Shown in pieces: positions 1,848 through 35,401 of a DNA stretch of 64,000 nt. The translations under genes and the position numbers were made by a program. Below the pieces are notes generated by a model. It had not been told where the DNA came from and did no database searches. It was given only the letters and a program-made list of their open reading frames with translations. The stretch comes from Minisyncoccota bacterium (GTDB taxonomy: Bacteria > Patescibacteriota > Minisyncoccia > Phycocordibacterales > PALSA-1337): contig JBAYFZ010000003.1 in NCBI GenBank assembly GCA_041666915.1, positions 22,394 to 86,393 on the forward strand, given 5' to 3'. Position 1 is the first letter of the stretch. Every line of letters starts with the position of its first letter.

Positions 1848-3053
1848 ATGAAGCCAAGGCGCATACTCATATTTTCTCTCGTATATTATCCTCGTCTTAT
1901 TGGTGGGGCAGAAGTTGCCATAAAAGAGATAACAGATAGGATTTCTCCGGAAGATGTGGAATTTGATATGGTAACTTTGCGCAAGCATTCACCAGCTTTT
2001 GAACGTATTGGTAATGTTAATATCTATCGAGTTGGTTCAAAGATATTTCCATTTTCAAAATATTTATTTATATTCCTGGCATATTTCAAAGCTTTAGAAT
2101 TACATAAGAAAAATAAATATGATGCCATCTGGTCCATCATGGCCAATTATGCTGGATTTTCTGCACTTTTCTTTAAAAAGAAAAATCCAAAAGTACCATT
2201 TATCTTAACTTTACAAGAAGGGGATTCATTTGATCATATTCGTAGAAGGGTTGGGATTTTCTATCCACTTTTCAAAATGATCTTTGAACGTGCCGACCAT
2301 ATCCAAACCATTTCAAAATATTTGGCAAATTGGGCAAAAGATATGGGCGCAAGATGTCCAGTGACCGTCGTACCAAACGCTGTTGATTATGAATTATTCT
2401 CAAAAGATATTTCTGTAGAAGAAGCTAGTCAATTAAAAAATAAACTTGGTAAAAAAGAGGATGATGTTTTTCTAATAACCACATCTAGGTTGGTGATAAA
2501 AAATGCCGTGAATGACATAATTCAAGCTCTGGAGTATCTTCCAGGTAATATAAAATTTTTGATTCTCGGCACTGGTTATGAAGAAAAAAATCTCAAGAAG
2601 CAAGTTGTTGATTTAAAATTAGAGTACCGCGTCAAATTTTTGGGATTTGTACCACATGCTGAAATGCCGAAGTATTTACATATAAGTGACGTCTTCATCA
2701 GACCATCTCTATCTGAAGGTTTTGGTAACTCTTTTATTGAAGCCATGGCTGTAGGCATTCCTGTTATAGCAACACCAGTTGGTGGTATTGTAGATTTTCT
2801 GAAAGATGGTGAAACGGGACTTTTGTGTGAAGTTAATAATCCAAGAAGTATTGCTCAGAAAGTTGATAAGATAATCAAAGATAGAGAATCAAGAGAATAT
2901 ATTGTGAGACAAGCGAAGGAGATGGTGAAGAAACATTACCAGTGGGACACTGTCGTAGAAAAGATGAAGGAGATTTTTCTATCAGTTTCTACAGTTGAAG
3001 TCTCTCGTCAAGAAATGAAAAATAAGCTTAATTCTGCTAGACTTAAATTATGA
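1848..3053 (+). CDS. Glycosyltransferase family 4 (GT-B fold, retaining)
   Basis: C-terminal EGFGNSFIEAMAVGIPVIATPVGGIVDFL matches the GT4/GT1 E-X7-E donor-binding motif. Length of 401 aa is typical. Confidence 0.8.
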   Translation: MKPRRILIFSLVYYPRLIGGAEVAIKEITDRISPEDVEFDMVTLRKHSPAFERIGNVNIYRVGSKIFPFSKYLFIFLAYFKALELHKKNKYDAIWSIMANYAGFSALFFKKKNPKVPFILTLQEGDSFDHIRRRVGIFYPLFKMIFERADHIQTISKYLANWAKDMGARCPVTVVPNAVDYELFSKDISVEEASQLKNKLGKKEDDVFLITTSRLVIKNAVNDIIQALEYLPGNIKFLILGTGYEEKNLKKQVVDLKLEYRVKFLGFVPHAEMPKYLHISDVFIRPSLSEGFGNSFIEAMAVGIPVIATPVGGIVDFLKDGETGLLCEVNNPRSIAQKVDKIIKDRESREYIVRQAKEMVKKHYQWDTVVEKMKEIFLSVSTVEVSRQEMKNKLNSARLKL

Positions 3054-4159
3054 AAATTTTAATAGCAACCGGAATATACCCACCTGATATTGGAGGGCCT
3101 GCTACATATTCACAATTGCTTCGAGAAAAATTACCGGAGAAGGGAATTCAAGTTAAAATTTTGACCTTTGGAGAAGTTCGTTATTTACCAAAAGTTATCA
3201 GACATCTAGTCTTTTTTTGTAAAGCAATGATTAGGGGTCGTGATGTAGATATAATCTTTGCACAAGATCCAGTTTCGGTCGGCTTTCCATCATGGTTGAC
3301 AACTTTCATCATGCGTAAAAAATTCTTTATACGTGTAGCTGGTGATTATGCTTGGGAACAAGCTGTACAAAGATATGGTATCAAAGATAATATTGATGAT
3401 TTTCAAAAAAAGAAATATGGTGCAAAGACAAGTTTTTTGCGAATGATCCAGAGGTTTGTCGTTGGTAGAGCGGATACAGTATTTACACCTAGTATCTATT
3501 TTAGGGATTTGGTAGCTGGATGGAATAAAAAGCAAAAAAGAGTTTTCCATATTTATAATGGAATTGATATGTTGCCGGTGACTCAAAGTAAAGAAGATGC
3601 ACGAAAAGTGCTTGCGATTCCTAGTGATACAAAAGTTTTAGTAACTATTGGAAGACTTGTACCATGGAAAGGCTTTTTCGGTCTGATAGATGTTGTCGGG
3701 GATTTGCAAAAGGTTTCTTCACAATATCGTCTGTATATTGTTGGTACTGGTCCAGATAAGGAATCTTTGAAGAAATATATCTCTGAAAGAGGTCTTGATG
3801 AAGTGGTTTTTCTCACTGGAGCAGTCCCTCGTGAGAAAGTCTTTTCATATTTGGTAGCTTCAGATGTGTTTGTGCTAAATACGTCATTTGAGAGTTTCTC
3901 ATTCCAAATAGTTGAGGCAATGCACGCTGGTACGCCAGTTATCTCTACGGATATAGGAAATATTTCTGAAATTGTTGAAAATGGTGAGGAGGGAATACTT
4001 GTTGCACCTGATGATAAAAAAGCTTTGAGTGATTCAATCTTGAAAATTGTTAATGATGAACAATTTAGATCGTCTATTATCATGCAGGCTAAAATTAAGT
4101 CAAAGATGTTTTCTATTGAAAATACCTTGAATAAGTTATACACTTTTCTCGTTGAATAA
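3050..4159 (+). CDS. Glycosyltransferase family 4
   Basis: FESFSFQIVEAMHAGTPVISTDIGNISEIVENGEEG is a GT4 signature. The start overlaps the upstream stop by 4 bp, which suggests an operon. Confidence 0.8.
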   Translation: MKILIATGIYPPDIGGPATYSQLLREKLPEKGIQVKILTFGEVRYLPKVIRHLVFFCKAMIRGRDVDIIFAQDPVSVGFPSWLTTFIMRKKFFIRVAGDYAWEQAVQRYGIKDNIDDFQKKKYGAKTSFLRMIQRFVVGRADTVFTPSIYFRDLVAGWNKKQKRVFHIYNGIDMLPVTQSKEDARKVLAIPSDTKVLVTIGRLVPWKGFFGLIDVVGDLQKVSSQYRLYIVGTGPDKESLKKYISERGLDEVVFLTGAVPREKVFSYLVASDVFVLNTSFESFSFQIVEAMHAGTPVISTDIGNISEIVENGEEGILVAPDDKKALSDSILKIVNDEQFRSSIIMQAKIKSKMFSIENTLNKLYTFLVE

Positions 4160-5249
4160 TACCGTGAATCAAAAACGATTATTAATGATTTCGACCGACA
4201 GATTAATCTTTGATGAGAAGAGCGAAGTTCGTGCGCGCCAGATTGAATACGCTAAGAATTGGGACGAAGTACACATTGTCGTCTTTAATCGATACCCCCG
4301 GGGGGTATCAGATGCGAATTTGAAAATCTCCCCTAACTGCTGGATCTATTCAACAGAATCATATTCAAAGTTTTTGTACCCATTTGACGCCATCAAGCTT
4401 GGTCGTCAGATTATTACTGAACATAAAATCAGTGAAATAACTTGCCAAGATTCTTCTCTGACAGCAATGGTCGGCGTATCTCTTAAAAAGAAGTTTAATA
4501 TTCCACTGGAGATTCAGATTCATACGGATATCGGTAGTCCATATTTTGCTCGTACTATTACCAATAAGATCCGACTTATGATGGCAAAAAAATATTTGCT
4601 GGAAGCGGATAAAATAAGGGTCGTTTCAGAGAGAATTAAAAAATATGTTGAGGTGATTCTTTCCAATAAAGATTGTTGCGGTGATTGTAGGTGCGAAACA
4701 GGTAATAGTTGTAAATGTTGCGGTGATAATTGCGCCTGCGATAAGACTTTAATAGAAGTCCGTCCGATAGTTGTAGATACGGAATTTATTAAAAATGCAC
4801 CGATTACTGTTGATTTGCATAAAAAATATCCACAATTTACAAAGATAGTCCTGATGGCTTCACGATTGGAAAAAGAAAAAAATATTGAATTGGCTATTAG
4901 GTCTTGGTCAGAAATTATTAAAATCAATCCAACAGTTGGTTTGATCATAGTCGGTAGTGGCTCCGAAGGATCTAAACTCAAAACATTAATCTCAAAGTTG
5001 GGATTAAATAAGAATATTTTTATGGAAAAATGGGTAGATAAAAATATTCTAGCTTCATATTACAAAACAGCTGATCTGTTTTTGGTCACTTCATTATTTG
5101 AAGGTTACGGTATGACTCTAGTTGAAGCCAATGCTGTCGGGTGTAAGATTGTCTCTACTGACGTAGGAATAGCAAAAGAAATGAATGCGACGATCGTAGG
5201 ATATAATACTAAGGAAGTTGCAGATGTGATTGTTTCCAAGATTAGGTAG
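4152..5249 (+). CDS. Glycosyltransferase family 4 carrying a metallothionein-like Cys-rich insertion
   Basis: EGYGMTLVEANAVGCKIVSTDVG is a GT4 motif. The insert NKDCCGDCRCETGNSCKCCGDNCACDK (12 Cys in about 27 aa) lies between the two Rossmann halves. Confidence 0.7.
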   Translation: MNNTVNQKRLLMISTDRLIFDEKSEVRARQIEYAKNWDEVHIVVFNRYPRGVSDANLKISPNCWIYSTESYSKFLYPFDAIKLGRQIITEHKISEITCQDSSLTAMVGVSLKKKFNIPLEIQIHTDIGSPYFARTITNKIRLMMAKKYLLEADKIRVVSERIKKYVEVILSNKDCCGDCRCETGNSCKCCGDNCACDKTLIEVRPIVVDTEFIKNAPITVDLHKKYPQFTKIVLMASRLEKEKNIELAIRSWSEIIKINPTVGLIIVGSGSEGSKLKTLISKLGLNKNIFMEKWVDKNILASYYKTADLFLVTSLFEGYGMTLVEANAVGCKIVSTDVGIAKEMNATIVGYNTKEVADVIVSKIR

Positions 5250-6288: not shown

Positions 6289-6307
6289 TTAACCTATTAT
6301 AATCCCC

Positions 6308-6925: not shown

Positions 6926-6932
6926 GATATTT

Positions 6933-11260: not shown

Positions 11261-13480
11261 ATGATTATAATTACACGGTTAAAGATTTATATGAAAGCCT
11301 ATAGAGATATTATCATCATACCGACCTATAACGAGAAAGACAACATAGGCAAAATAATTGAAAAAGTTAGTGGGCTTTATCCTGAGCTGGAAATATGGGT
11401 AGTTGACGATAGTTCACCTGATGGAACAGCAAAGATTGTCTCTACAATCATGAAATCCAATCCAAAGGTGAGTTTGATTGTCCGTAAAGCAAAGACTGGT
11501 CTAGGCGATGCTTATAAAGATACTTTGATCAAAATCCAAAAAATGGGTGATGTTAGGAGTGTAATAACGATGGATGCTGATGGTTCTCATAATCCTTTGA
11601 AGATAAGAGAACTTCTAGATTCGCTTCAAAAAGTTGATTTGAGTATTGGTTCTAGATATACGAGCGGCGGTGGTGGAATGAAGGGTATGGGCATGTATAG
11701 GAATTTTTTGAGTATGGGTGGCAATCTATATGCTAGGATTATTATTGGTTTTGGTATCAATGATTCTACTGCTGGTTTTGTAGCCTTCAGGAGAACTGCT
11801 TTGGACGGTATCAATATTCCTGCTATTGCTAGTGCTGGTTATTCTTATCAAATAGAATTCAAGAATACTTTACTTGAAGCTGGAAGAAGTTGGAATGAAA
11901 TTCCTATTACTTTTGTTGATCGTATAGTAGGTACATCAAAAATGTCTGGAAGGATTATCAAAGAGGGAATTTTGACCCCTTGGAGAATAGCGGCTCGTAA
12001 AACATTCAAATGGTCACATTTCAAAGAGGTTTTGAAAAAAGCTTTACTGATTTCTACTGTGCTCTGTGCTTTTATGTTTGCTCTTTTCCATTTAAAAGAG
12101 AGTCCACCTGTCTGGTATGACGAAGGCTTGTATATTCAGGATGCTGTAAACCTTGTCCAAGATGGAATCGTAGGAGTTAGGTTTTCTCCAGATATTATCC
12201 GTCATGTTTCGGAGTTTAGTGTTGGTTTTCCATTGACTTATTCTTTGGCCGGATTTTTCAATATTTTTGGAATAGATATTTTCACAGCACGTTTGCTTAT
12301 GATTTTGTTTATTTTAGGTCTTATCATTTCTAGTTATTTTCTCATAAAGAAACTATATGGCAGAAATATAGCGATAATTTCTACAATTTTATTGTCTACA
12401 TTTCCACCTTTATATGGTAATGGTAAAAGTGTATTAGGTGAGACACCAGGATTGTTGTTTTTAGTCTTAGCTTTATTGTTTGTTTATTTAGCTAGAACAA
12501 AATTTGGATCAAGGAATAAATATATCGTGTTTGCTGGTTTATTTGTTGGTTTGGCTGTAGCTACAAAACCATTCTTTCTTATATTGATTCCAGCGCTTAT
12601 TGTTGGTTTGTTTTCCAGTAGAAAAATTATGCAGATTAAGATGTCTGATCTATATCTAGGTTCAATAGCTACGTTGATACCGATAATTATTTGGCTGACA
12701 ACCCAGTTCCAATCAGGAGATTCATTCTTGAAGATTTTTTCTTTCTACGCCAACCCCTATCAAGTTTCTAGTATTATTAGCATAGTCTTTAATAGTATTA
12801 AAAGTCTATTTACCAGTGTAGGCCCGCTATATCTTATGGTGGTATTGTTTGTCTGGTTGGTATCTTTGATAATTAAGTTTAAGAGACGTTCAGAAATTTC
12901 TCCAGAGGAAATAACAGCCTTCACTTTTTCTGTTCTCTGTGTTTTGGCTTATTTGAGAATATCAGGAATCTTTAGATACCTTTATCCAGCTCAAGTGATT
13001 TCTTTGATTTTCTTTCCATCAGCTTTAGCTTACATACTAAATACATTTTCAACTTCATGGTTTGATAATACGAAAAAGAAATTTGTAACGCTTGGTTTGG
13101 CTATTGTATTTATACCACTGACATTTCTCGGTATATATCAAGTTCTCTTCAATTCTTGGGTTGCTGAAGCTTATGGATCAAATAAGACTGCTGATTGGCA
13201 AAATTACTTTGAGAAGTTACCCTCAAAAGAATCCGTTTTCTTTTACGATACTCCTGAAGTTGCGATCTTTATGAATGGTAGTAATTATTATCAATATATA
13301 GAACCAGCGCCAAGTATGAAGATTGGTACTGAAGAATTGGATGTTATACGTCAAGGTATAACCGATAAAGTAGTTATTACTACAGGTAGATTGAGCGGAC
13401 TTGATCAGAGCCTGTTTGTAAAATATAGTTTAGACAAAACCTTTTACAAATATTCTATTTTGAAAAAGATTAAGAAATAG
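11261..13480 (+). CDS. Fusion: GT2 polyprenol-phosphate-sugar synthase (DPM1-like) + C-terminal polytopic GT-C-like membrane domain
   Basis: N-terminus: IIIPTYNEKDNIGKII, VVDDSSPDGT, DADGSHNP. After about residue 250 there are 10 or more TM helices, with a PMT/ArnT-like DE motif (PPVWYDEGLYIQDA) after the first TM. Confidence 0.65.
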   Translation: MIIITRLKIYMKAYRDIIIIPTYNEKDNIGKIIEKVSGLYPELEIWVVDDSSPDGTAKIVSTIMKSNPKVSLIVRKAKTGLGDAYKDTLIKIQKMGDVRSVITMDADGSHNPLKIRELLDSLQKVDLSIGSRYTSGGGGMKGMGMYRNFLSMGGNLYARIIIGFGINDSTAGFVAFRRTALDGINIPAIASAGYSYQIEFKNTLLEAGRSWNEIPITFVDRIVGTSKMSGRIIKEGILTPWRIAARKTFKWSHFKEVLKKALLISTVLCAFMFALFHLKESPPVWYDEGLYIQDAVNLVQDGIVGVRFSPDIIRHVSEFSVGFPLTYSLAGFFNIFGIDIFTARLLMILFILGLIISSYFLIKKLYGRNIAIISTILLSTFPPLYGNGKSVLGETPGLLFLVLALLFVYLARTKFGSRNKYIVFAGLFVGLAVATKPFFLILIPALIVGLFSSRKIMQIKMSDLYLGSIATLIPIIIWLTTQFQSGDSFLKIFSFYANPYQVSSIISIVFNSIKSLFTSVGPLYLMVVLFVWLVSLIIKFKRRSEISPEEITAFTFSVLCVLAYLRISGIFRYLYPAQVISLIFFPSALAYILNTFSTSWFDNTKKKFVTLGLAIVFIPLTFLGIYQVLFNSWVAEAYGSNKTADWQNYFEKLPSKESVFFYDTPEVAIFMNGSNYYQYIEPAPSMKIGTEELDVIRQGITDKVVITTGRLSGLDQSLFVKYSLDKTFYKYSILKKIKK

Positions 13481-15957: not shown

Positions 15958-17070
15958 ATGAAACTGATTTACCTAACTTCAAAAAGATTCCCAGCGACTA
16001 CGGCCGATCATTTTTTTGTCAAAGAGATGGCCAAAGCTTTTACGAAGATTTTGTCAAAAGATTTTTTACTTGTAGTGGCAGACAACACTTCCGATGAGCT
16101 CAAAGATATTTCTTATAAGAGTTTGGAACTCAAAGCTATAAGACGTCTTGGTATTAGATATTTTGTATGGTTGCCATATTTTATTTGGAAAGATGGTCTA
16201 AATAATATAGACACATTATTTTTTTCCAACGATGCCAATCTATTATCAATCCTCATTTTTTGGAAGAAAGTTTTTGGTTTGAAATACAAGATTGTTTCTG
16301 ATTGGCATATGTTGTTTGAAAATTGGCGAGATAGGTTTGTTTCAAAAAATAGTGCAAAAATGATTACAACCACAGATCATTTGAAAGATTTGTTGGTTGC
16401 TAGTTCTGGCGTTGATAATAAAGATGTCCTGACTGCTTATGGTGGAGTTGATCTGTTGAAGTTTGATGCTGTTACAGAGTCCGTATCTTCTTTGAGAAAT
16501 CGTCTAGGTTTACCAGTTGATGCTTTTATCGTTGGTTATATAGGCTTTTATAAGACGATGAAAATGACCAAAGGTTTGGATACTATGATAAATGCTTTAT
16601 CTTTGATTGAAGATAATAATATAAAGATGGTTTTTGTTGGTGGTAAACCAGATGAGATAGAAGAATATAAGCTTATAGCAAAGAATACTGGCGTTGCTGA
16701 CAGGATCGTCTTTGTGCCAGTTGTACCAGCCGACGGTATGCCAGCTTATGAAAAGGCCATGGATGTTTTGGTTATACCTTATCCTGACCGGCCTCATTTT
16801 AGGAAGTACGGTTTTCCTATGAAAGCTTATGAATATTTGGCTAGCAATAGACCAGTTTTATATTCAAATCTTCCTATAATGAAAGAGGTGCTTGCTGGTT
16901 GTGCTATTTCTTTTGAACCAGGATCAAGTCAAGATTTAGCCAATAAAATTCTTGAATTGAAATCAAATCCAAATAAGGGAAGTGAACTCGTAATGAATGC
17001 CTCTAAGAAAGTTGTCAGTTGTACTTGGTTGGAGCGTGCAAAAAATATCGTTGAGTTTGTGAGGGGTTAG
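15958..17070 (+). CDS. Glycosyltransferase (GT-B, GT4/GT1-like)
   Basis: Two-Rossmann-domain architecture. The C-terminal half has the KAMDVLVIPY...FRKYGFPMKAYEYLASNRPVL region. Confidence 0.6.
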   Translation: MKLIYLTSKRFPATTADHFFVKEMAKAFTKILSKDFLLVVADNTSDELKDISYKSLELKAIRRLGIRYFVWLPYFIWKDGLNNIDTLFFSNDANLLSILIFWKKVFGLKYKIVSDWHMLFENWRDRFVSKNSAKMITTTDHLKDLLVASSGVDNKDVLTAYGGVDLLKFDAVTESVSSLRNRLGLPVDAFIVGYIGFYKTMKMTKGLDTMINALSLIEDNNIKMVFVGGKPDEIEEYKLIAKNTGVADRIVFVPVVPADGMPAYEKAMDVLVIPYPDRPHFRKYGFPMKAYEYLASNRPVLYSNLPIMKEVLAGCAISFEPGSSQDLANKILELKSNPNKGSELVMNASKKVVSCTWLERAKNIVEFVRG

Positions 17071-19142: not shown

Positions 19143-20066
19143 ATGTTAAAAAATAAGACTATTTTGGTAACCGGTGGTGCTGGATTTATAGGATCCAATA
19201 CCGTAGAACTTCTTTGTGATCAGGGGTATTCGGTTCGAGTAATTGATGATTTGTCTTTCGGGTTTAAGAAATTTTTGGACCCTAGAGCGAAATTTTATGA
19301 AGCTTCAATAGCAGATGAGAAGGTACTAGAAGAAGCTTTATTGGGAGTTGATGCGGTATTTCACTTTGCAGCATCGAGTATTATCAAATTTTCTATTGAT
19401 GACCCAGCATCTTATTTTGAAAATAATATAATCAATGGCGTTAAGTTGCTCGATTCTATGCGTAAAATTGGAGTAAAGAAAATTATCTTTTCTTCCTCAG
19501 CTTCTGTATATGGTGAGCCTGAACAAGTCCCAGTAAAAGAAGATCAGATGAAAAAGCCACTTCAACCTTATGGGGCTAGTAAGTTAGCCTTTGAAGCTGT
19601 GTTATCAGCTTATTACCATAGTTTTGGTATAGAGAGTACCTCATTGCGATATTTCAATGCTTATGGCCCAAGAGATGAGCAAATACCTGCTACGAGGGCG
19701 GTACCGATGTGGATAAAGGAAATATTGGCGAATGAGCCCATTAAAGTATATTGGAAAGGTTGTCAACTTAGAGATTACGTCTTTGTAAAAGATATTGCTC
19801 AAGCACATATAGATGTTCTTGATCTTGGTGGTTGTAACGTCTTCAATGTTGGTTCTGGTACAGGGGTAGTTATGACAGATCTATTGGAAGAAATATTCGA
19901 GATTATTGTCAAACGAAATGAGGTTATTGATTTGGGTGAACGTGTAGGCGATCCGATGAAACTTGTTGCGGATACGAGTGCAATATACAAAGCTGTTGGA
20001 TGGAGACCAAAATATTCTTTACATGATGGGCTTGTAGAAGCAATAAACTTTTATAAGAATCAATGA
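19143..20066 (+). CDS. NAD-dependent sugar epimerase (SDR extended family, GalE-like)
   Basis: VTGGAGFIGSN is the Rossmann motif. Catalytic S...YGASK is present. There is no TDE dehydratase motif. Confidence 0.8.
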   Translation: MLKNKTILVTGGAGFIGSNTVELLCDQGYSVRVIDDLSFGFKKFLDPRAKFYEASIADEKVLEEALLGVDAVFHFAASSIIKFSIDDPASYFENNIINGVKLLDSMRKIGVKKIIFSSSASVYGEPEQVPVKEDQMKKPLQPYGASKLAFEAVLSAYYHSFGIESTSLRYFNAYGPRDEQIPATRAVPMWIKEILANEPIKVYWKGCQLRDYVFVKDIAQAHIDVLDLGGCNVFNVGSGTGVVMTDLLEEIFEIIVKRNEVIDLGERVGDPMKLVADTSAIYKAVGWRPKYSLHDGLVEAINFYKNQ

Positions 20067-21271
20067 AAGCTGTAATTTTATGTGCAGGACTTGGTACTAG
20101 ACTCCGTCCTATAACAAATACGATCCCTAAAGTGATGATTCCTATAGGGGGAAAGCCATTACTTCAACATCATATAGAATGGCTGGTCGGAAATGGAATA
20201 AGAGATATAGGGATAAATTTATTTTATTTACCTGAAGTTGTGGTGGATTATTTCGGTGATGGATCAAAATTTGGTGCACGTATACATTATTCGCATCAGA
20301 AAACTTTATCTGAAACTGCGAGCGGTTTCAAAAATTTTAAAGATTTTGTTGGCAATGAAAGTTGTTTGATTGTTTATGGAGATAACATGTTTGATTTGAG
20401 TGTTTCAGATTTTTCCGATTATCATAAGAAGAAAGGAGGCCTTGCAACTATTGCACTCAAAGAATGGGAAAATCCAGGATCAAAAGGTATAGTTGGCTTG
20501 GATAAAGAAGAAAAGATCTTGTGGTTCAGAGAAAAGCCACAGCCTCATGAAATAACAACAAATGTTGGCAATGCGGGAATATACATAGTAGAACCAGAGA
20601 TTTTTTCTTTCATACCTAGTGATAGAGATTATGATTTTGGTAAGGATATTTTTCCAGCACTTTTGAATGAAGGCAAATTTATTTATGGATACCATTTACA
20701 GGGGTATCATATTGATATTGGCTCCCCAGAAGCTTTAGTGAAAGCTCGGGAAGATTACAAAATATTGTTTCCCAATAAGGCAATATTTATTGATCGTGAT
20801 GGCGTCTTGAATAGAAAACCTAGAGAACATGACTATGTAAAGAATTTCAGCGAATTTTTTTGGAATGATGGGGCTCAAGATCTGATTAAAGAATTTAAAA
20901 CTCGGGGATTTTTGGTTATTGTTATCAGTAATCAACAGGGAATTGCTAAGGGTAAGGTTTCAGAAAAGTTCATTGAGGATTTGCATAAAAAGATGAACGA
21001 AGATCTCAAAACTATCGGAACGAATATCGACGGTTTCTATTATTGCCCGCATCTTGAATCTGAAGGTTGCGTGTGCCGGAAACCTAGCCCAGGACTTTTA
21101 TTTAAGGCTGAATATGATTATAAGATTGATATGTCTAGAAGTTTTATGATTGGTGATTCCAAAAGCGATATTGAGGTGGGGGACAGGGCTGGATGTTTTA
21201 CAATTCAAATTGAGACAGATCTAATTGGTGGACGTTCTGTTCTAGATAAGATAATGCAGAGAGATAAATAG
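20063..21271 (+). CDS. Bifunctional sugar-1-phosphate nucleotidyltransferase (HddC/ManC-like) + HAD phosphatase (GmhB-like)
   Basis: N-terminus: MKAVILCAGLGTRLRPITNTIPKVMIPIGGKPLL. C-terminus: AIFIDRDGVLN ... CPHLESEGCVCRKPSPGLL (the GmhB zinc loop) ... GDSKSD. Confidence 0.7.
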   Translation: MKAVILCAGLGTRLRPITNTIPKVMIPIGGKPLLQHHIEWLVGNGIRDIGINLFYLPEVVVDYFGDGSKFGARIHYSHQKTLSETASGFKNFKDFVGNESCLIVYGDNMFDLSVSDFSDYHKKKGGLATIALKEWENPGSKGIVGLDKEEKILWFREKPQPHEITTNVGNAGIYIVEPEIFSFIPSDRDYDFGKDIFPALLNEGKFIYGYHLQGYHIDIGSPEALVKAREDYKILFPNKAIFIDRDGVLNRKPREHDYVKNFSEFFWNDGAQDLIKEFKTRGFLVIVISNQQGIAKGKVSEKFIEDLHKKMNEDLKTIGTNIDGFYYCPHLESEGCVCRKPSPGLLFKAEYDYKIDMSRSFMIGDSKSDIEVGDRAGCFTIQIETDLIGGRSVLDKIMQRDK

Positions 21272-26317: not shown

Positions 26318-27379
26318 CTAACGTCCGGCGTCAACTTTTACAGTTGAAGCTAGCTTGCTATATCTTTTTTTGAATAATTTTGAAGATATTCTAGAAATTA
26401 TACTTGCACCCCTTGTGATTTCCGGTTTTATTGTTACCCTAACTTTACTAGAATGAGCGTTGTCTCTATTTAATGTATTCATCACCTCACATAATCTAGG
26501 AAAAATCTGATATCTATCTAATATCTGTTTTTTTGCTTCAGATATTTCTTTATGGAATTTTCTGTAATAATCATTTTGAATAGCATTTTCAATAGCCAAT
26601 ATTGCTTCAAAAGGTTTATTTATATCTATCTTTACTATTGTATTTGGAGAAAAATAATCATCGATATTTGGGCAGCCAAAATAGAATGGATAAGATTCAG
26701 CTAATAATGAGTCCGCGAGTTTTTCAGTCCAATAATTTTTATATACGTTATTTTCAATAACTACGTGATATCTGTAAGGAGCGATTCCGTCCCATTTGTC
26801 TGATATCATGTTGATACCGGAACCTAACACATCGAGTTTTTCTTTGAAATGATCTTTTAAAATTTTTATGAATTTTAATCTTTTTCGGTGTCCTCGGGTC
26901 GTAGTTTTACTCGATGATATCACTGATATTAATTTTGTCTTGGATATATCGGTAAGCCGTTTCAATTCATCGTAACTCTTTGTGAAAGGACCAAGTTTAT
27001 TGTTTTTTAAATCAAAATGAGCACCAATATACCACGGTAAGAGCTGGAATTTAAAAATATTTTTATTATCTAATCCTTCTTGAGTAGTGATGATGGTATT
27101 AAACTGCTTGGTGAAGTCTTTGTTGTATTTTTTTATACTTGGAGGTTCACCTGTAATAAGTATTGTATTTTCCGGATAGCACTTTATTGTTTGTTCTCTT
27201 GGTATTCCATCAATGATTACCCACCAGTCAAATTCTTCTGTATTGTCGTCTGTATAAAATTGGTAATTTCCCCAAATCCCCTTTGATTCTGGAGTCTGTC
27301 TCAAGAATGACCAACCATGAGAGTTTGATGATATTTTGACTTTGATTCTTTCGTTCATATTATTATGATTTGTACCCAA
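26318..27379 (-). CDS. GT10-like alpha-1,3/4-fucosyltransferase (candidate)
   Basis: C-terminal YRYHVVIENNVYKNYWTEKLADSLLAESYPFYFG resembles the GT10 F-x-L-x-FENS-x4-Y-x-TEK motif. Confidence 0.45.
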   Translation of the reverse strand: MGTNHNNMNERIKVKISSNSHGWSFLRQTPESKGIWGNYQFYTDDNTEEFDWWVIIDGIPREQTIKCYPENTILITGEPPSIKKYNKDFTKQFNTIITTQEGLDNKNIFKFQLLPWYIGAHFDLKNNKLGPFTKSYDELKRLTDISKTKLISVISSSKTTTRGHRKRLKFIKILKDHFKEKLDVLGSGINMISDKWDGIAPYRYHVVIENNVYKNYWTEKLADSLLAESYPFYFGCPNIDDYFSPNTIVKIDINKPFEAILAIENAIQNDYYRKFHKEISEAKKQILDRYQIFPRLCEVMNTLNRDNAHSSKVRVTIKPEITRGASIISRISSKLFKKRYSKLASTVKVDAGR

Positions 27380-28091
27380 TCAATCTTTTTATAGACCTCT
27401 TGATTTTCTTCATTATTACTTCGTATTTATTTTTTAGTGGTTCTTTGTATGTATTGAAAATAGATTTTTTTAATATGAAAATATCATCGATTTTGATTCT
27501 AGTTAGTTTCTTGTATCCTTTATTAGACAAAAAATTATTTAGACGTTTATCTTCAAATGGATTTTCAACAGAGATACATTCAATATGGAAGCGACCAAAA
27601 TCAATTGATTGTAATATTTCTAGTTCGCCACCTTCAGTATCTAAACTGAAGTAGTCTATATGGGAAAGCCTGAATTTTTCTAGGACATCGTTGATTGTCA
27701 TTGTTTGAACATCTATTGTGGTAGTTGTAACTCCACGTTCTGATGCTTCTTTTTGTAGCCTGTCAAGGTATCGTTTATCAAAGGTTTCAACTAATCCAGA
27801 AATCTGACCCATATCTCCAGGCGCTTCAATAAATTTTTTTGTAGTAGCTTTATTCGAAGAGATAGCTATGTTTGTTGTCTGACAGTGGCGGTTTTTTACA
27901 AGTTTTTCGTAGGCGGACTTTCTTGGTTCTATACATAAACCTGACCAACCCCTTTCGCGTTCAAAGAAAAGAGTATTGCTACCAACCACTCCGTCATCTG
28001 CACCCATCTCCAGAAATACTCCATTTTTGAATTGTTTGAATACATTTTCATCGAGAAATTTATCCTGATTGTATTGGCTATAGTATCTCAT
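27363..28091 (-). CDS. FkbM-family methyltransferase
   Basis: FLEMGADDGVVGSNTL ... IDYFSLDTEGGE. Confidence 0.7.
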   Translation of the reverse strand: MRYYSQYNQDKFLDENVFKQFKNGVFLEMGADDGVVGSNTLFFERERGWSGLCIEPRKSAYEKLVKNRHCQTTNIAISSNKATTKKFIEAPGDMGQISGLVETFDKRYLDRLQKEASERGVTTTTIDVQTMTINDVLEKFRLSHIDYFSLDTEGGELEILQSIDFGRFHIECISVENPFEDKRLNNFLSNKGYKKLTRIKIDDIFILKKSIFNTYKEPLKNKYEVIMKKIKRSIKRLIGYKS

Positions 28092-28840: not shown

Positions 28841-28844
28841 TATG

Positions 28845-29705: not shown

Positions 29706-29717
29706 GATGATGTTTAA

Positions 29718-30506
29718 TTATTTAGCGTATACGTCCCCGTAATAAATTGGTTGATTGTTTGCATGTTTTTTTTCTATTTCAGATAACAAGTGTTCAGCAT
29801 TAAGCCAATACAGTGATGCCATTTTAGAGTCTGCTGCAATTACAAAATTGAATTCCGTAAAACCTATTGACTGTAATTTAGATACACATCGCTCGGTGTG
29901 CTGTTTGTCGTCAGTGTGGAATTCAAAATTTATAAGCGGGATTTTTTTTGATAAACCTGATAGTACTTCATACTCAAATCCCTCAACGTCTATTTTGCAA
30001 AAATATGGTATGCCATATTTGGAGATAAGTTTGTCTAACGTTGTTATCTTAACTTTTTCGGTTTTCTCGAATGTGTGATATTTTGTTCCTTGTTGCCATG
30101 TCTTGATAAAACTAGAAAACCCTGGATATTTCGTAGAAATGTTGATTTCAGCCTCACCATCTTCTTTGCCAATACCACATCGCTCAACCGCCACATTTTT
30201 ATTATTTGTATATTTTATTCTGAGGCGGTTGGCCAAATCAGATTGTGGTTCTACTGCAATAACCTTGCATCCTAATTTTAAAAATAGATTAGTTTTGTCA
30301 CCAATATTGGCTCCGATATCAAAAATAAGTTTATTTTTGCCGATGTATTTGTTGTAAAATATAAGTTGCTTCCTATCCGATTCCAAGTCTTTTAATGATT
30401 TGATTACCGTCAAGTTTATAAATTTACCAGTCAGATATTGTCTTAGTATTTTTATACTTTCTGAATATGGTCGTTCAAATAATATTTTTTTAATTTTATT
30501 TTTCAT
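29718..30506 (-). CDS. FkbM-family methyltransferase
   Basis: IFDIGANIGDKTNLF ... CKIDVEGFE. Confidence 0.7.
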   Translation of the reverse strand: MKNKIKKILFERPYSESIKILRQYLTGKFINLTVIKSLKDLESDRKQLIFYNKYIGKNKLIFDIGANIGDKTNLFLKLGCKVIAVEPQSDLANRLRIKYTNNKNVAVERCGIGKEDGEAEINISTKYPGFSSFIKTWQQGTKYHTFEKTEKVKITTLDKLISKYGIPYFCKIDVEGFEYEVLSGLSKKIPLINFEFHTDDKQHTERCVSKLQSIGFTEFNFVIAADSKMASLYWLNAEHLLSEIEKKHANNQPIYYGDVYAK

Positions 30507-31776
30507 TTTGTGTGATTGGTTGAGTCTCGTATTTTAAAATAGTGGCTATTTTACCCCAATGATTATCTCCGAATATTGCTTGTCTTGGATTGTTTTTATT
30601 TGTAATTTCAAAATTGATGTCTTTGACTATATCTACACCACTCTTACCCTCATTGAAATGTTTGAAGCTTATTACTACAGAAATATTGCCAATTTGAAAT
30701 AGGGAACTCGGTATTTCAACTCGAGTTTTATATTTTCCTACTTCATAATCGCGATGTTTTCCATTGGCATCTCCTTCTGTAGATACTAATATCAAATCAC
30801 CATGATAATAGAAGTGAAGTACAATAAGTTTATTTTCTAATTTTTTTCTAACATCTAATTCTATCTCTATAAAAAACTTTTCTCCAACGGGTATTTGAGT
30901 CTGAGATTGATTGTCTTTGTCTAATATAACCACTCTTGTGATCTGTCCCTCGGGATTATTGTTGATAGGATATTCTGTAATAGAATCAAGAGTTCTTTCT
31001 GATTGTAGATAGTAGTTGATAACTTCTGAGGTTTTGCCAAATTTAATAAGCTCACCTTTTTTAAGTAAAACAGTTTTGGTACACAATCTTTCAATCGCAT
31101 CTAAATTATGGCTCACGAAAATGATCGTCCTTCCATCCTGATGCGTTACCTCCTCTATCTTACCCAAACATTTCTTTTGGAATTCGGCGTCACCAACGGC
31201 CAAGACTTCGTCAATGATCAAAATATCTGGTTCCATGTGGGCGGCAACGGAGAAGGCGAGGCGAACGTACATGCCACTGGAGTAATATTTTACGGGTGTA
31301 TCCAAGAATTTTTCAATGCCAGCAAATCCGACGATTTGATCAAATTTCTTGGCTATTTCTTTTTGGGTCATACCTAGAATGGCACCGTTGAGAAAAATAT
31401 TCTCGCGGCCGGTAAGTTCTGGATGGAAACCGGTTCCAACTTCTAGGAGACTACCGACTTTACCACGAAGGATTATTTCTCCTTCGGTTGGTGGGGTGAT
31501 TTGAGAAAGAATTTTCAAAAGAGTTGATTTGCCGGCACCATTTTTACCGATGATACCTATAACCTCGCCTTTATTTACGGTGAAGTTAACATCTTTGAGT
31601 GCCCAGAAATCTTCTTTCTTTTCTAAACCAGCAACTGATTTGGCTTTTGTTTTTAGATAAGAAAGAGGTTGCTTGATTATATTCATCATGACGTCACGCA
31701 AAGCAATATAACCACCACGCTCATGGTTTATCTTATATTTTTTACTTATATTTCTTACTTCAATGATAGGTTCCAT
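30496..31776 (-). CDS. wzt: Polysaccharide ABC exporter ATP-binding protein (Wzt/TagH type) with a C-terminal carbohydrate-binding domain
   Basis: Walker A GIIGKNGAGKSTLLKIL, the ABC signature YSSGMYVRLAF, Walker B ILIIDEVLAVGD. There is an extra beta-rich domain of about 150 aa, as in Wzt_C. Confidence 0.8.
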   Translation of the reverse strand: MEPIIEVRNISKKYKINHERGGYIALRDVMMNIIKQPLSYLKTKAKSVAGLEKKEDFWALKDVNFTVNKGEVIGIIGKNGAGKSTLLKILSQITPPTEGEIILRGKVGSLLEVGTGFHPELTGRENIFLNGAILGMTQKEIAKKFDQIVGFAGIEKFLDTPVKYYSSGMYVRLAFSVAAHMEPDILIIDEVLAVGDAEFQKKCLGKIEEVTHQDGRTIIFVSHNLDAIERLCTKTVLLKKGELIKFGKTSEVINYYLQSERTLDSITEYPINNNPEGQITRVVILDKDNQSQTQIPVGEKFFIEIELDVRKKLENKLIVLHFYYHGDLILVSTEGDANGKHRDYEVGKYKTRVEIPSSLFQIGNISVVISFKHFNEGKSGVDIVKDINFEITNKNNPRQAIFGDNHWGKIATILKYETQPITQNEK

Positions 31777-31784
31777 ATATTTTT

Positions 31785-32633: not shown

Positions 32634-32875
32634 TTGTTTATCTTATTAACGACTTTCTTTTTTAGTGAAAGATAAGACTTCACAGCTTCTTGTTCTATTT
32701 CGGGGGAGAGGACACGTAGGATTTCTTTGCCAAGGATGCGGTACTGTCCACCAACTTTATTGGCACGGAGCAAACCTTTTTTTAGAAGGCGTTTGACCGT
32801 ACTTTCACTGATCCTCAAAATGTCTTGAGTCTCAGAGGTTGTATATACACTGTTTGGTTTGATTTCTTCTGCCAT
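32627..32875 (-). CDS. Small HTH DNA-binding protein (Xis/HTH_17-type, MerR superfamily)
   Basis: 82 aa. ...TSETQDILRISESTVKRLLKKGLLRANKVGGQYRI fits the HTH_17 pattern. It overlaps the wzm start by 7 bp and is the first gene of the minus-strand operon. Confidence 0.55.
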   Translation of the reverse strand: MAEEIKPNSVYTTSETQDILRISESTVKRLLKKGLLRANKVGGQYRILGKEILRVLSPEIEQEAVKSYLSLKKKVVNKINKW

Positions 32876-33139: not shown

Positions 33140-35401
33140 ATGATGTACGATACCCTTACTTTTACTAATATCAATTTACTCAAAAATATGCCCCTCAAGA
33201 AAATAGTTCATGGTATAACGGTCGCTTCTTTATTCCTTTTGCCGCTTTTTGCTCTATTTCCAATACCTCATACTCCGTTTGAAGTATCTAACCTTTTCTT
33301 TTTCCCATTCATTACCGGTAAAGCTTTCTATTTCAGATTGATGGTTGAGGTCGCTTTCGCAGGATGGCTTATCTTAACTTTTATTGATGCAAAATATAGA
33401 CCAAAATTAACACCACTTACTATTGGTGTAACTTTGTTTACCGTTATCGCTTTTCTTGCGGATATTCTCGGGGTCAATCCTCTTCGCAGTCTTTGGTCAA
33501 ACTTTGAACGTATGGAAGGTTGGATAACAATAGTTCATTTGTGGGCATTGTTCATGGTAACTACAAATGTCTTTGGTTCTGGAGAAGAAGGTAAGAGAAT
33601 GTGGCATCGTTGGTTGAATATGTCTCTTGCTGTTGCTTTGGTCACTGCCTTTTATGGATTGGCTCAATATTTTGGTTGGGCAGAGATTCACCAAGGTAGT
33701 ACACGTTTGGACGCTTCTCTTGGTAACTCAGCATATATGGCAGTTTATATGCTGATCCATGCTTTCATCGCTGCTTATATGTATTTTGTTGCTAAGGCAA
33801 AAAAGATTGTCAATGCTGATTTTTTGAAATGGTTTTATCCTATAATTTCTTTATTGTTTGCTTTCCTTGTATTCCAAACACAGACTCGCGGTACTATTCT
33901 AGGACTCATCGGAGGAATTCTCTTGGCTCTTGGTCTATATGCTTTGCTCGCCAAAAATGAATCAAGTAAATCTCGCGGTATTGCGGTAGGAGTTATAGCT
34001 GTCATCATCTTGATCGGTGTTATCTTCTGGACGAATCGCAATTCTTCTTTTGTTCAAAATAGTCAATTGCTCAATCGTATGGCTAGTATTTCTTGGTCAG
34101 AAGCCAAGGGTCAAGCTCGTAATTACATTTGGCCATTAGCTATAAAAGGTGCAATGGAAAGACCAATTCTCGGTTGGGGACAAGAAAACTTCAACTATAT
34201 ATTCAATGCCAATTACAATCCGGCAATGTACACCCAGGAACAATGGTTTGACCGTGCTCACAGTGTGTTCATAGATTGGTTGGTTGCAGGTGGTTTTGTA
34301 GGTGTTATTGCATATCTTGCATTGTATGTACTATTACTTATGGCAGTCTGGAAATCTTCCATGACCATTGCAGAAAAGAGTGTTCTTACAGGACTTACGG
34401 CTGGATATTTTATCCACAATATCTTCGTCTTTGATAACTTGGCTAGTTACGTTCTATTCTTTACTGTTTTAGGTTTTGCCAATTCACAAACTAGAAGTGA
34501 ACATCGTACATTATTTGGTAAAAATACAGTTAGCAAAGATGCTGTTGAATATGTAGTCGCTCCGATAGTTATAGTTTGTCTGGTTGGTGTATTGTATTTC
34601 TTCCAATATCGTTTGGTACAAGCCAATACACGTCTTATTACTGCTCTGGTTTCTTGTTCAGGAAGCGGTCAGCCAGATGCGACTTTGTATGAGAAAGCTT
34701 TGGATGTAAATGTTTACGGTGCCAACCAAGAGATTCGCGAGCAGATACTTAGTTGTGCTGGTAGAGTTATTCCTTCTCAACAACTTGCAGGTCCTATCCG
34801 ACAAGCTTTCTTTTCTACAGCAATGAATGAGATCCAAGCTCAGATAAAAGCTACTCCTAAAGATACTCGTATTTATACTTTAGGTGGTTCATTCTTGAAT
34901 AGTATAGGACAATTCAATGAAGCTTTACCTCTTCTTGAAAAAGCTCATGAATTATCACCAGCAAAGCAATCAATCTCCTTTGAGTTGGCAACTGATTATT
35001 TGAATCTTGAAAAAGCCGATAAAGCTGTCATCTTACTAAAGCAGGTTTATGAAACCACTCCAGATTTTTATCAAGCAAAATCTTCTTATGCTACAGCCTT
35101 GGTTCTTTCTGGAAAAGAGACAGAGGCTAGAAAGATATTTAGCGATGATTTGGGAATCTTCAACACCGCTCAGATGGCAAAGGCTTTTGTGATGCTCAAA
35201 CAATATTCCAAAGCTATTACAATATATAGAGGTTTGATAAAGGCTAATCCAAAAGATGTAGATCTCCGTGCTCAATTGGCCCAGATACAATATATGGCAG
35301 GTCAGATTTATGAAGCAGTTGCAACTTTGCGTGATATAGAAAAGAGTAATCCAGAATTGAAAGCTCAAATTGACGCTACTATAAAGCAGATACAAAAATA
35401 G
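33140..35401 (+). CDS. O-antigen ligase/polymerase-like membrane protein (Wzy_C-type) with C-terminal TPR repeats
   Basis: An N-terminal domain of about 470 aa has more than 10 TM helices and a large periplasmic loop. The C-terminal 250 aa are TPR-like (YEKALDVN..., AKSSYATALVLSGKETEARKIF...). Confidence 0.6.
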   Translation: MMYDTLTFTNINLLKNMPLKKIVHGITVASLFLLPLFALFPIPHTPFEVSNLFFFPFITGKAFYFRLMVEVAFAGWLILTFIDAKYRPKLTPLTIGVTLFTVIAFLADILGVNPLRSLWSNFERMEGWITIVHLWALFMVTTNVFGSGEEGKRMWHRWLNMSLAVALVTAFYGLAQYFGWAEIHQGSTRLDASLGNSAYMAVYMLIHAFIAAYMYFVAKAKKIVNADFLKWFYPIISLLFAFLVFQTQTRGTILGLIGGILLALGLYALLAKNESSKSRGIAVGVIAVIILIGVIFWTNRNSSFVQNSQLLNRMASISWSEAKGQARNYIWPLAIKGAMERPILGWGQENFNYIFNANYNPAMYTQEQWFDRAHSVFIDWLVAGGFVGVIAYLALYVLLLMAVWKSSMTIAEKSVLTGLTAGYFIHNIFVFDNLASYVLFFTVLGFANSQTRSEHRTLFGKNTVSKDAVEYVVAPIVIVCLVGVLYFFQYRLVQANTRLITALVSCSGSGQPDATLYEKALDVNVYGANQEIREQILSCAGRVIPSQQLAGPIRQAFFSTAMNEIQAQIKATPKDTRIYTLGGSFLNSIGQFNEALPLLEKAHELSPAKQSISFELATDYLNLEKADKAVILLKQVYETTPDFYQAKSSYATALVLSGKETEARKIFSDDLGIFNTAQMAKAFVMLKQYSKAITIYRGLIKANPKDVDLRAQLAQIQYMAGQIYEAVATLRDIEKSNPELKAQIDATIKQIQK

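Follow-up and report, generated by a model that had tools for sequence, protein, structure and literature searches.

Bacteria of the Candidate Phyla Radiation (CPR, Patescibacteria) are ultra-small, mostly uncultivated organisms with small genomes that are thought to live attached to other cells; they are monoderm, have neither an outer membrane nor lipopolysaccharide (LPS) synthesis, and their surface chemistry is almost unknown. In other bacteria, Gtr-type systems such as GtrA/GtrB/GtrC of Shigella phages, CsbB/GtcA/YfhO and GacI-L add branch sugars outside the membrane. RfbT (WbeT) methylates the non-reducing terminal sugar of the Vibrio cholerae O1 O-antigen, which is exported by an ATP-binding cassette (ABC) transporter, and the GDP-D-glycero-alpha-D-manno-heptose pathway (GmhA, HddA, GmhB, HddC) serves the Aneurinibacillus S-layer glycan and capsules of Campylobacter and Burkholderia. 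The S-layer glycan (slg) clusters, according to a review of the S-layer glycome, have wzm/wzt, the methyltransferase-glycosyltransferase fusion WsaE that makes a 2-O-methyl cap, low GC content and overlapping open reading frames (ORFs), with lipid-linked glucose side-branch addition in Paenibacillus alvei, and in the O-oligosaccharyltransferases WsfB and PglL the Wzy_C domain is joined to a TPR at the C-terminus (PMC2943079). The carbohydrate-binding domain (CBD) of Aquifex aeolicus Wzt binds a 3-O-methyl-mannose/rhamnose cap (PMC9445017). The subject here is a surface-glycan locus at positions 1848-35401 of a 64,000-nucleotide (nt) stretch, referred to as the window, of contig JBAYFZ010000003.1 from a Minisyncoccota bacterium (assembly GCA_041666915.1, positions 22,394 to 86,393, forward strand).

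Comparison with related loci showed that, as judged from sequence and gene order, this region is one variant of a locus that occupies a fixed chromosomal spot across Parcubacteria and has the pattern of an O-antigen-like serotype locus shuffled by lateral exchange. Its product family is probably a surface sugar polymer exported by an ABC transporter and likely methyl-capped which, since the host lineage is monoderm and has no LPS, would not be an O-antigen in the strict sense. A search of the full-text literature found no description of this locus arrangement in CPR, Parcubacteria or Patescibacteria.

Conserved core and export system

Related loci were collected by three exact-protein look-ups and a scan of one genome per species (80 loci), with BLAST of the locus ORFs against the window proteins, and the conserved core was read from 28 Patescibacteria loci. 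Relatives are designated by L numbers and window genes by their lower coordinate. The core consisted of SecA-MurB-Wzy_C/TPR facing HTH-Wzm-Wzt (HTH, helix-turn-helix), followed by variable cassettes of glycosyltransferases (GTs) and methyltransferases downstream of wzt. wzm and wzt were adjacent wherever a contig spanned both, the Wzy_C-TPR gene lay divergently upstream of them in at least 15 relatives, and secA or murB adjoined the core in approximately 10 relatives (murB in about six). Wzm was 58-84% identical in the Patescibacteria relatives with the exception of L019 (42%), and the HTH protein, which headed the wzm operon in nine relatives with 72-82% identity, was among the best conserved proteins of the locus. 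The named close homologues of Wzt and of Wzy_C-TPR were all from Parcubacteria/Patescibacteria, and the window Wzt had a 100% identical NCBI counterpart in a MAG of Candidatus Paceibacterota.

The variable region of the relatives reused cassettes of the window, namely GT11, GT10, the 25392/24457 pair (kept in L004, L013, L024 and L025) and the GT2-DUF268 fusion 22821, which was found again at 35-63% identity; orthologues of 25392 were present in eight relatives at 35-62% identity. L004, with a Wzt 72% identical to that of the window, showed the same gene order across much of the operon and ran from its GT11 gene into orthologues of GT2b and GT4e, again in the order of the window. An earlier interpretation made from the letters alone, here called the sequence-only reading, had described the density of methyltransferases as exceptional. 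This did not hold, since the close relative L004 is also rich, with 5 FkbM-type and 3 other methyltransferase domains in 21 kb. The low GC content and the shuffling of cassettes suggest, at the level of sequence, lateral exchange of the variable part. Origin of the whole locus from a mobile element was considered for the TraG/VirD4-like neighbour and an IS200-like gene 8 kb downstream, and is not supported, the core being syntenic with secA/murB in many genomes.

The transporter itself was identified by family and fold. Wzm had a single NCBIfam match, the galactan Wzm/RfbD permease model, and a gap of 8 nt separates wzm from wzt. The nucleotide-binding domain (NBD) of Wzt matched that of A. 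aeolicus Wzt (6amx, E 1e-64), which placed it in the Wzt/TagH subfamily. Taken alone, the Wzt C-terminus scored 19.8 bits with PF14524 against a threshold of 30.4 bits; a sequence search of the PDB with the isolated segment (174-177 amino acids) gave no Wzt CBD, and a word search returned one homologue, that one with a precomputed PF14524 match. Full-length Wzt homologues were abundant at 58-76% identity and about half of them had a precomputed PF14524 match. The alignment of a profile of 51 Wzt homologues with A. aeolicus Wzt (404 residues) extended to residue 359 and scored 302 bits, compared to 281 bits for NBD-only entries. In the AlphaFold (AF2) model the C-terminal domain (residues 265-420) was all-beta with block pLDDT mostly 73-92, and Foldseek with this model placed full-length A. 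aeolicus WzmWzt (8dku and 7k2t) at the top (8dku_A with 396 columns, E 2.6e-38) and NBD-only entries lower (E 5.8e-28). In addition, 9 of 10 C-termini from relatives that BLAST could not align to the window CBD passed the PF14524 threshold. Overall, the predicted structure and the homologue profile identify the C-terminus as a divergent Wzt_C carbohydrate-binding domain, which is what the sequence-only reading had proposed although the Pfam check by itself fell short.

The two parts of Wzt differed in conservation. The NBD was 72-84% identical to the window in all 28 Patescibacteria loci, whereas the CBD was 31-59% identical in 12 and undetectable or marginal by BLAST in the other 16, and Wzts with an unalignable CBD kept the same protein length. 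Averaged over the 51-sequence alignment, identity to the window was 81% for the NBD and 44% for the CBD. The boundary between conserved and variable sequence therefore lies inside wzt, and the CBD belongs to the variable part.

In 54 loci from several phyla the gene directly after wzt was examined, and in approximately 30 of them it encoded a methyltransferase (FkbM in 13, class I in about 10, Methyltransf_24/TylF in 7 and CmcI in 1). In the window this gene is the FkbM methyltransferase 29718, which overlaps the wzt stop. The adjacency and the methyl-cap binding of A. aeolicus Wzt together support the terminator-type methyltransferase that had been suggested earlier, and 29718 would most likely be the best candidate for the cap enzyme on the basis of its position. 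Export by the ABC transporter with a terminus read by the CBD is regarded as very likely, and it is rather likely that the cap is a methyl group. No WbdD-like kinase was recognised at the locus, and no WbdD/WbbB-like coiled-coil ruler was evident when the GT2-DUF268 linker was read by eye, no coiled-coil predictor having been run.

Some relatives showed further features. At L004:4657-9731 (Logan SRR26386571) about 5 kb was inserted between wzm and wzt, with an AbiEii toxin-family gene, a 617-amino-acid protein without Pfam match, a GT2+GtrA fusion and a methyltransferase. L036 (DATJQC010000007.1), binned as 'Candidatus Nanoarchaeia archaeon', had a Wzt 56% identical to that of the window over residues 1-307, which could reflect a mis-binned Patescibacteria contig or lateral transfer. 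An asparagine-synthase homologue was found at L006:15102-16871 within the variable region; the S-layer glycan cluster of P. alvei has such a homologue too, namely wsfA (PMC2943079).

Gene content of the locus and its flanks

The Pfam scan covered every ORF of at least 100 amino acids between window positions 1 and 45,500, with 32 such ORFs in 1848-35401, and the small 33rd gene (HTH) was scanned separately (Table 1). The 33 genes extend from the start of the first GT4 gene to the stop of the Wzy_C/TPR gene, exactly the limits given by the sequence-only reading. Approximately 99% of the interval was coding and internal gaps were at most 47 nt; the sole sizeable non-coding gap, 264 nt between the HTH gene and the Wzy_C-TPR gene, carried a TTGACA-17-TAAAAT match at 32910-32882, upstream of the HTH gene, which itself overlaps wzm by 7 nt. 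The GC content was 0.343 in the locus and 0.385-0.42 in the flanks. The left half (1848-21271) was mostly on the forward strand and the right operon (21297-32875) on the reverse strand. The divergent pairs 10350-11261, 14855-14870 and 19095-19143 were spaced by only 2, 14 and 47 nt, which leaves no space for intergenic promoters. Neither the Rfam scan nor the tRNA scan gave a match in the window.

A total of 14 Leloir-type glycosyltransferase domains were identified by Pfam: five GT4, six GT2 (25392 just below threshold), two GT11 and one GT10. This is in line with the earlier count of at least 12, and the two GT11 and one GT10-like assignments were all above threshold. Besides these, three GT-C/PMT_2 domains (7376, 14870 and the C-terminal half of 11261) and one GtrA (6933) were present; only two GT-C transferases had been listed before, the third being hidden in the 11261 fusion. 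Methyltransferase domains comprised four FkbM, four stand-alone class I, one DUF268 domain fused to GT2 (22821) and one degenerate remnant (9088). In the latter, Methyltransf_23 was matched over profile positions 66-163 only (the C-terminal half, 9088-9480) and the GxGxG/glycine-rich S-adenosylmethionine (SAM) motif was absent, so the N-terminal domain is probably a degenerate methyltransferase and the count of active methyltransferases nine, not ten. The nine credible domains agree with the earlier tally of nine (4 FkbM, 5 class I), to which the degenerate one is added, whereas of the two GT-methyltransferase fusions claimed 22821 stood and 9088 did not in its methyltransferase part. The remaining genes encode a GHMP kinase, a short-chain dehydrogenase/reductase (SDR), an NTP-transferase+HAD fusion, Wzm, Wzt, Wzy_C+TPR and the small HTH protein. 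Pfam thus agreed with the families given earlier for GtrA, the sugar-nucleotide enzymes, Wzm/Wzt and Wzy_C/TPR; nearly every call of that inventory was sound and the HTH_17 gene 32627-32875 was its omission.

Table 1. Genes of the surface-glycan locus with their positions in the window, strand and supporting matches. DPMS, dolichyl-phosphate mannose synthase; TM, transmembrane.
Position	Strand	Feature	Evidence
1848..3053	+	GT4 (a)	PF00534 148 bits, PF13439 61 bits
3050..4159	+	GT4 (b)	PF00534 142 bits
4152..5249	+	GT4 (c)	PF00534 94.5 bits
5230..6288	+	GT4 (d)	PF00534 57 bits
6308..6925	+	Class I SAM methyltransferase	PF08241 52.9 bits
6933..7379	+	GtrA-family small membrane protein, candidate polyprenyl-P-sugar flippase	PF04138 87 bits
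7376..9082	+	GT-C membrane glycosyltransferase (PMT_2), 568 amino acids	PF13231 48.6 bits; multiple hydrophobic helices
9088..10341	+	Probable degenerate methyltransferase remnant + TM helix + GT2 (GtrB/DPMS-like)	PF00535 73 bits
10350..11258	-	FkbM methyltransferase, also V. cholerae RfbT match	PF05050 63.9 bits; PF05575 28.4 bits (threshold 27.9)
11261..13480	+	DPMS-type GT2 (residues 18-243) fused to GT-C/PMT_2 (residues ~260-739)	PF00535 88 bits, PF13231 53 bits
13470..14132	-	Class I SAM methyltransferase	PF13847 64.6 bits
14172..14855	-	Short soluble GT2, polyprenyl-phosphate glycosyl synthase type (AglJ/PpgS/DPM-like), divergent to 14870	PF00535 126.5 bits
14870..15955	+	GT-C membrane glycosyltransferase (PMT_2/PMT), 361 amino acids	PF13231 52.8 bits; PF02366 22.8 bits (threshold 22.7)
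15958..17070	+	GT4 (e)	PF00534 67 bits
17088..18113	-	GT2	PF00535 98 bits
18106..19095	-	GHMP sugar kinase, heptose-7-phosphate kinase (HddA) clade	NCBIfam HddA 189 bits vs Fkp 104 bits
19143..20066	+	Extended SDR epimerase/dehydratase, GalE-like	PF01370 198 bits; GalE 234 bits (cut-off 262)
20063..21271	+	Nucleotidylyltransferase (ManC/HddC-like) fused to GmhB-type HAD phosphatase	PF00483 145 bits
21297..22070	-	GT11 (alpha-1,2-fucosyltransferase family)	PF01531 104 bits
22080..22811	-	Class I SAM methyltransferase	PF08241 49.9 bits
22821..24464	-	GT2 + DUF268 methyltransferase fusion, WsaE-like logic	PF00535 98 bits, PF03269 59 bits
24457..25395	-	Class I SAM methyltransferase, 312 amino acids	PF13489 66.8 bits
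25392..26270	-	Probable GT-A fold glycosyltransferase, 'EDD' motif (IILEDDCLP)	PF00535 21.4 bits, below 23.3
26318..27379	-	GT10-like (alpha-1,3/4-fucosyltransferase family), C-terminal domain only	PF00852 33.4 bits (threshold 23.9)
27363..28091	-	FkbM methyltransferase	PF05050 75 bits
28094..28840	-	FkbM methyltransferase	PF05050 96 bits
28845..29705	-	GT11	PF01531 115 bits
29718..30506	-	FkbM methyltransferase, 11-nt overlap with wzt stop	PF05050 66.7 bits; RfbT 23.2 bits (below threshold)
30496..31776	-	Wzt: ABC ATPase (residues ~54-258) + predicted C-terminal beta-sandwich CBD (residues ~265-420)	PF00005 87.5 bits; Wzt_C 19.8 bits
31785..32633	-	Wzm, ABC-2 permease	PF01061 58 bits
32627..32875	-	Small HTH_17/MerR-like protein at the head of the wzm-wzt operon, candidate regulator	PF12728 45.7 bits
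33140..35401	+	Wzy_C (WaaL-fold, 12 TM) + 13th TM + C-terminal TPR, candidate glycan:acceptor transferase	PF04932 68 bits + TPR families

Candidate genes for membrane-side sugar addition were grouped in the left half, where 6933, 7376 and 9088 together form a complete Gtr-like triad of GtrA, GT-C and membrane-anchored GT2. The GT2 half of 11261 matched the Pyrococcus furiosus Dol-P-Man synthase 5mlz (E 7e-22), and full-length synthase-GT-C fusions of this kind were uncommon, with about 7 among the 150 nearest cluster representatives, most others being stand-alone GT-C proteins of about 480 amino acids. The top NCBIfam matches of 14172 were AglJ, PgfS, ArnC and PpgS, every one under its cut-off. 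By family and arrangement, the locus has three pairs of putative donor-synthase GT2 and GT-C (one pair fused), GtrB/GtrC-like, that share one GtrA. For the GT10-like 26318, the PDB matches were only the fucosyltransferases 7yro and 2nzw, both weak.

The nucleotide-sugar genes were examined for the likely donors. Kinase 18106 had an HddA score under the NCBIfam cut-off of 600 bits, and its PDB matches were heptose kinases (3k85, 4n3o and 4usk) at E 4e-45 to 3e-38 compared to E 2e-14 for Fkp. The SDR 19143, which overlaps 20063 by 4 nt, was just 23-24% identical to the Gmd/Fcl of relatives. The HAD domain of 20063 scored 115-148 bits with GmhB models, just under their cut-offs, and 127 bits with TIGR01656, above its cut-off, while for the nucleotidylyltransferase domain (HddC 101 bits) ManC, RmlA and HddC fitted about equally. 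Together the three genes would point to a route of the GDP-D-glycero-D-manno-heptose type. Fucose salvage by a split Fkp-like kinase and guanylyltransferase (18106/20063) was disfavoured by the kinase matches (heptose kinases E 4e-45, Fkp E 2e-14) and by the GmhB type of the HAD domain. In eight relatives gmd, fcl or both lay no more than 10 kb from wzt; gmd scored above its cut-off with 551-582 bits in the three scanned, and fcl scored 444-494 bits. In four of these eight the pair was placed directly between the HTH gene and wzm. Fucose is hence a real theme of this locus family, but the window variant has no locally encoded donor. A possibly fucose-containing polymer, as proposed earlier, remains plausible, but the gene set here is closest to the GDP-heptose route and does not provide a GDP-fucose pathway.

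The Wzy_C-TPR protein had at least 120 full-length homologue clusters, 53-72% identical among those listed, with an invariant WGQENFNY...EQWFDRAH loop and invariant C506 and C539 after the last TM helix. A crude hydropathy scan was insufficient for its topology and the AF2 helix map (pLDDT 85, pTM 0.80) was used instead. This map showed nine helices, a loop at 299-375, three helices, a short K/R-rich loop (450-465), a long 13th helix and TPR repeats. Foldseek with the membrane part gave the WaaL ligase 7tpg_B as the best match (TM-score 0.63 on target). A 12-TM WaaL core with one extra helix, the K/R-rich loop and the Cys pair after TM13 would put the TPR on the outer face of the membrane, where the catalytic loop also lies. 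None of the curated O-oligosaccharyltransferase models in NCBIfam was matched by this protein.

Several features were identified outside the locus. A gene for a TraG/VirD4-like type IV secretion coupling protein at 7-1827 (+), with PF12696 and PF02534, ended 20 nt before the first GT4 gene, and a homologue 41% identical was found upstream of wzm in L021. Downstream, a small GIY-YIG nuclease gene at 36810-37172 (+) overlapped the end of murB, and an IS200-like Y1 transposase homologue (33 bits) at 43017-43628 (-) lay between obg and gatB; the GIY-YIG and IS200-like genes are possible mobile or selfish elements in a conserved flank. A second small protein of the MerR/HTH_17 type was encoded at 45517-45768 (-). 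Further downstream, a giant open frame at 50208-64000 (+) of at least 4,597 codons ran past the window end, with a signal-peptide-like N-terminus, fn3, many FG-GAP repeats, 26% Ser+Thr, 14% Gly and a GC content of 0.419. Its sequence looks like that of a surface or adhesin-like protein, which would make it a conceivable glycosylation target. Just upstream of it, at 46351-50178 (+), were four genes for Ser/Thr-rich proteins, three with signal-peptide-like N-termini. Of these, 47580 and 49363 appeared paralogue-like on side-by-side reading, and 48184 had a C-terminal membrane anchor and a sub-threshold match (18.7 bits) to a DUF916-like domain, the peptidoglycan-binding domain of WxL-interacting proteins; in its arrangement this group of genes resembles the cell-surface-complex ('csc') clusters known from Firmicutes. 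No protein in the window matched an S-layer family, the only candidates being the Ser/Thr-rich secreted proteins and the giant FG-GAP/fn3 protein, 11-15 kb off.

Proposed pathway and alternatives

Overall, the locus is probably a serotype-like surface-glycan locus of a Parcubacterium in which the product leaves by the ABC-transporter route and would, more tentatively, be transferred to a surface protein. Tools support the family and fold calls, the synteny, the variability of the CBD and the adjacency of wzt and methyltransferase; the cap chemistry, the order of steps, the terminating methyltransferase and the acceptor are inferred. In the proposed pathway, GT4, GT2, GT10-like and GT11 enzymes would assemble a polymer in the cytoplasm on a polyprenyl carrier, with donors that may include a GDP-heptose-type sugar from the HddA-like kinase, the GmhB-HddC-like fusion and the SDR. 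Several FkbM and class I methyltransferases would then O-methylate the polymer. A terminal modification, most likely a methyl group from the wzt-overlapping FkbM enzyme, would stop chain growth, and the divergent Wzt CBD would read this cap and license export via Wzm/Wzt. Outside the membrane, the three DPMS-type GT2/GT-C pairs and GtrA would add side-branch sugars from polyprenyl-phosphate donors. Finally, the WaaL-fold Wzy_C enzyme with its extracytoplasmic TPR would pass the finished glycan to an acceptor, for which a protein of the cell surface (S-layer, pilin or adhesin) is the most likely choice by comparison with Bacillales S-layer glycan clusters; a protein acceptor is a tentative assignment drawn from that analogy.

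Several findings weigh against this pathway. No initiating phosphoglycosyl transferase (WecA/MraY-like or WbaP-like; PF00953, PF02397) was found in the 64-kb window or in the flanks of three Pfam-annotated relatives. In Escherichia coli, wecA lies elsewhere in the genome, and the initiator may likewise lie elsewhere here. Neither an S-layer gene nor a pilin gene could be recognised among the genes of the window, and the step to a protein acceptor rests on analogy and on a presumed monoderm envelope. The cap-pocket residues of A. aeolicus (Leu300, Thr346, Ala348 and Trp362) were not conserved, the alignment ending before Trp362, so cap chemistry cannot be inferred from the sequence, and with ten methyltransferase domains present the terminator cannot be singled out. 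GmhA was absent, with no SIS-domain protein among the Pfam-scanned window proteins, as were gmd/fcl orthologues from the whole window (best identity 23-24%). In addition, the left half and the right operon could serve different products.

With the same synthesis and export, the product could instead be a secondary cell-wall polysaccharide or lipoglycan (teichoic-acid/rhamnan-like) on peptidoglycan or on a membrane glycolipid, Wzy_C-TPR being then a ligase to a lipid or wall acceptor or unrelated to the polymer. The best curated matches of the Wzt NBD were TagH teichoic-acid exporters (204 and 182 bits) and mycobacterial galactan Wzt, with TagH/TarH matched in the PDB, but this similarity reflects a shared ABC subfamily and not the substrate. 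The murB gene adjoins the core in about six Patescibacteria relatives, and GtrA/GT2/GT-C modules are known from Gram-positives, where they modify streptococcal rhamnans as well as wall and lipoteichoic acids; on the other side, no LCP (LytR-CpsA-Psr) gene was present in the window, at least 15 relatives have a Wzy_C-TPR gene in a divergent arrangement with wzm-wzt, and the architecture of the protein is like that of the S-layer O-oligosaccharyltransferase WsfB. A wall polymer is considered unlikely, and transfer to a surface protein is retained as the tentative reading.

It was also considered that two or more independent systems are adjacent, the operon HTH-Wzm-Wzt-...-GT11 (21297-32875) making a capped polymer and the left half (1848-17070) a separate glycolipid or direct protein glycosylation of the O-mannosylation type. 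The halves differ in strand organisation, the GT-C 14870 reaches the protein-O-mannosyltransferase threshold of PF02366, in most relatives the 10 kb around wzt preserve the right half only, and stand-alone PMT_2 GT-C relatives were very numerous (23,463 at E<=0.001). Against a division, the GC content was uniformly low and the packing unbroken over the whole interval, and in L004 the GT11 gene continues into the GT2b and GT4e orthologues. L004 also had a GT2+GtrA fusion between wzm and wzt, and L017 a GT2 and GtrA immediately upstream of wzm; Gtr-like modules beside or inside wzm-wzt argue that they serve the same polymer. Separate systems are on this evidence quite unlikely. By analogy with these relatives, the GtrA/GT2/GT-C system, which is real and had been offered earlier as an alternative based on protein O-glycosylation, would more probably add branches within this one pathway than stand as a rival to it. 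A classical LPS O-antigen locus with WaaL-type ligation to lipid A-core is extremely improbable: the Wzy_C membrane domain has the WaaL fold and Wzts with an alignable CBD (44-50% identity) occur in diderm Verrucomicrobiota, Bacteroidota and Acidobacteriota, but the source and all close relatives are Patescibacteria, a group known to make no LPS and to have no outer membrane, none of the Lpx, Lpt and Waa genes was found in the window, and the extra TM helix and TPR of the ligase-like protein are not found in WaaL.

For the preferred capped and exported polymer, a more far-reaching version was formulated, rather doubtful as a whole. Under this version a hypervariable Parcubacteria glycan locus beside secA/murB would have a swap unit that starts inside wzt and exchanges the CBD with the downstream methyltransferase and GT cassettes, and the lineage-wide Wzy_C-TPR would glycosylate S-layer, pili or giant adhesins. 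If true, the locus would be one of the main factors that determine host attachment and susceptibility to phages in these episymbionts. The conserved core could in any case anchor population-genomic 'serotyping', and the variable unit of CBD and methyltransferase predicts co-evolution of cap and reader. About 33 kb of a presumably small genome is given to one surface-glycan family with the cap-and-export logic of O-antigens and S-layer glycans; this large investment, already remarked upon in the sequence-only reading, is not a one-off: the region is the variable portion of a locus that is shared throughout Parcubacteria.

Comparison with known systems

Two of the four FkbM proteins resembled RfbT weakly, 10350 with a score above the threshold and 29718, which follows wzt, with a score that falls short of it. 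Compared to Gtr-type systems, GtrA, a GT2 polyprenyl-phosphate sugar synthase and a GT-C are likewise encoded together (6933-10341) and two more GT2/GT-C pairs follow; unlike them, there is a single GtrA for three modules, of which one is a DPMS-GT-C polypeptide, and the GT-C is of the PMT_2 and not the GtrC/YfhO type. For the GDP-heptose pathway, the candidate counterparts are the kinase of the HddA clade (3k85, 4n3o, 4usk), the GmhB-type HAD and the sugar-1-phosphate nucleotidylyltransferase; the set differs here in the absence of GmhA from the window, in the fusion of GmhB to the nucleotidylyltransferase and in scores below the NCBIfam equivalog cut-offs.

Cap-dependent WzmWzt export, as in A. 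aeolicus and E. coli O8/O9a, shares the ABC-2 permease and the ATPase with a predicted C-terminal beta-sandwich CBD, and the best PDB matches in sequence and fold were those of A. aeolicus. Different are the host without LPS, the cap pocket that is not conserved, the absence of a recognised WbdD-like kinase or ruler at the locus, and a ligase-like enzyme with an extra TM helix and TPR. The O8/O9a analogy drawn in the sequence-only reading was thus apt for the mechanism and less so for the host, a CPR bacterium known to have no LPS, for which the Bacillales slg cluster is closer.

The slg clusters of Geobacillus stearothermophilus NRS 2004/3a and P. alvei CCM 2051T differ from the present locus in several respects: here the locus has neither an S-layer gene nor an initiating Gal-1-P transferase (WsaP/WsfP), a GDP-heptose-type set takes the place of rml genes, 9-10 methyltransferases stand against 1, three GT-C modules are present with one fused to its donor synthase, the phylum is CPR and the locus is known from genes alone. 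They are nevertheless the closest known system, since they share a monoderm host, wzm/wzt beside polymer GTs, a methyltransferase-glycosyltransferase fusion (22821-24464 here), a Wzy_C protein (with C-terminal TPR in WsfB), a lipid-linked side branch (P. alvei; predicted here), low GC content and overlapping ORFs. All components of the locus come from known families, the logic of the pathway is textbook and current understanding is not overturned; the present comparison adds the lineage-wide syntenic core, the variable unit that includes the CBD, a putative donor set for heptose and not fucose in this variant, and the rare fusion of synthase and GT-C.

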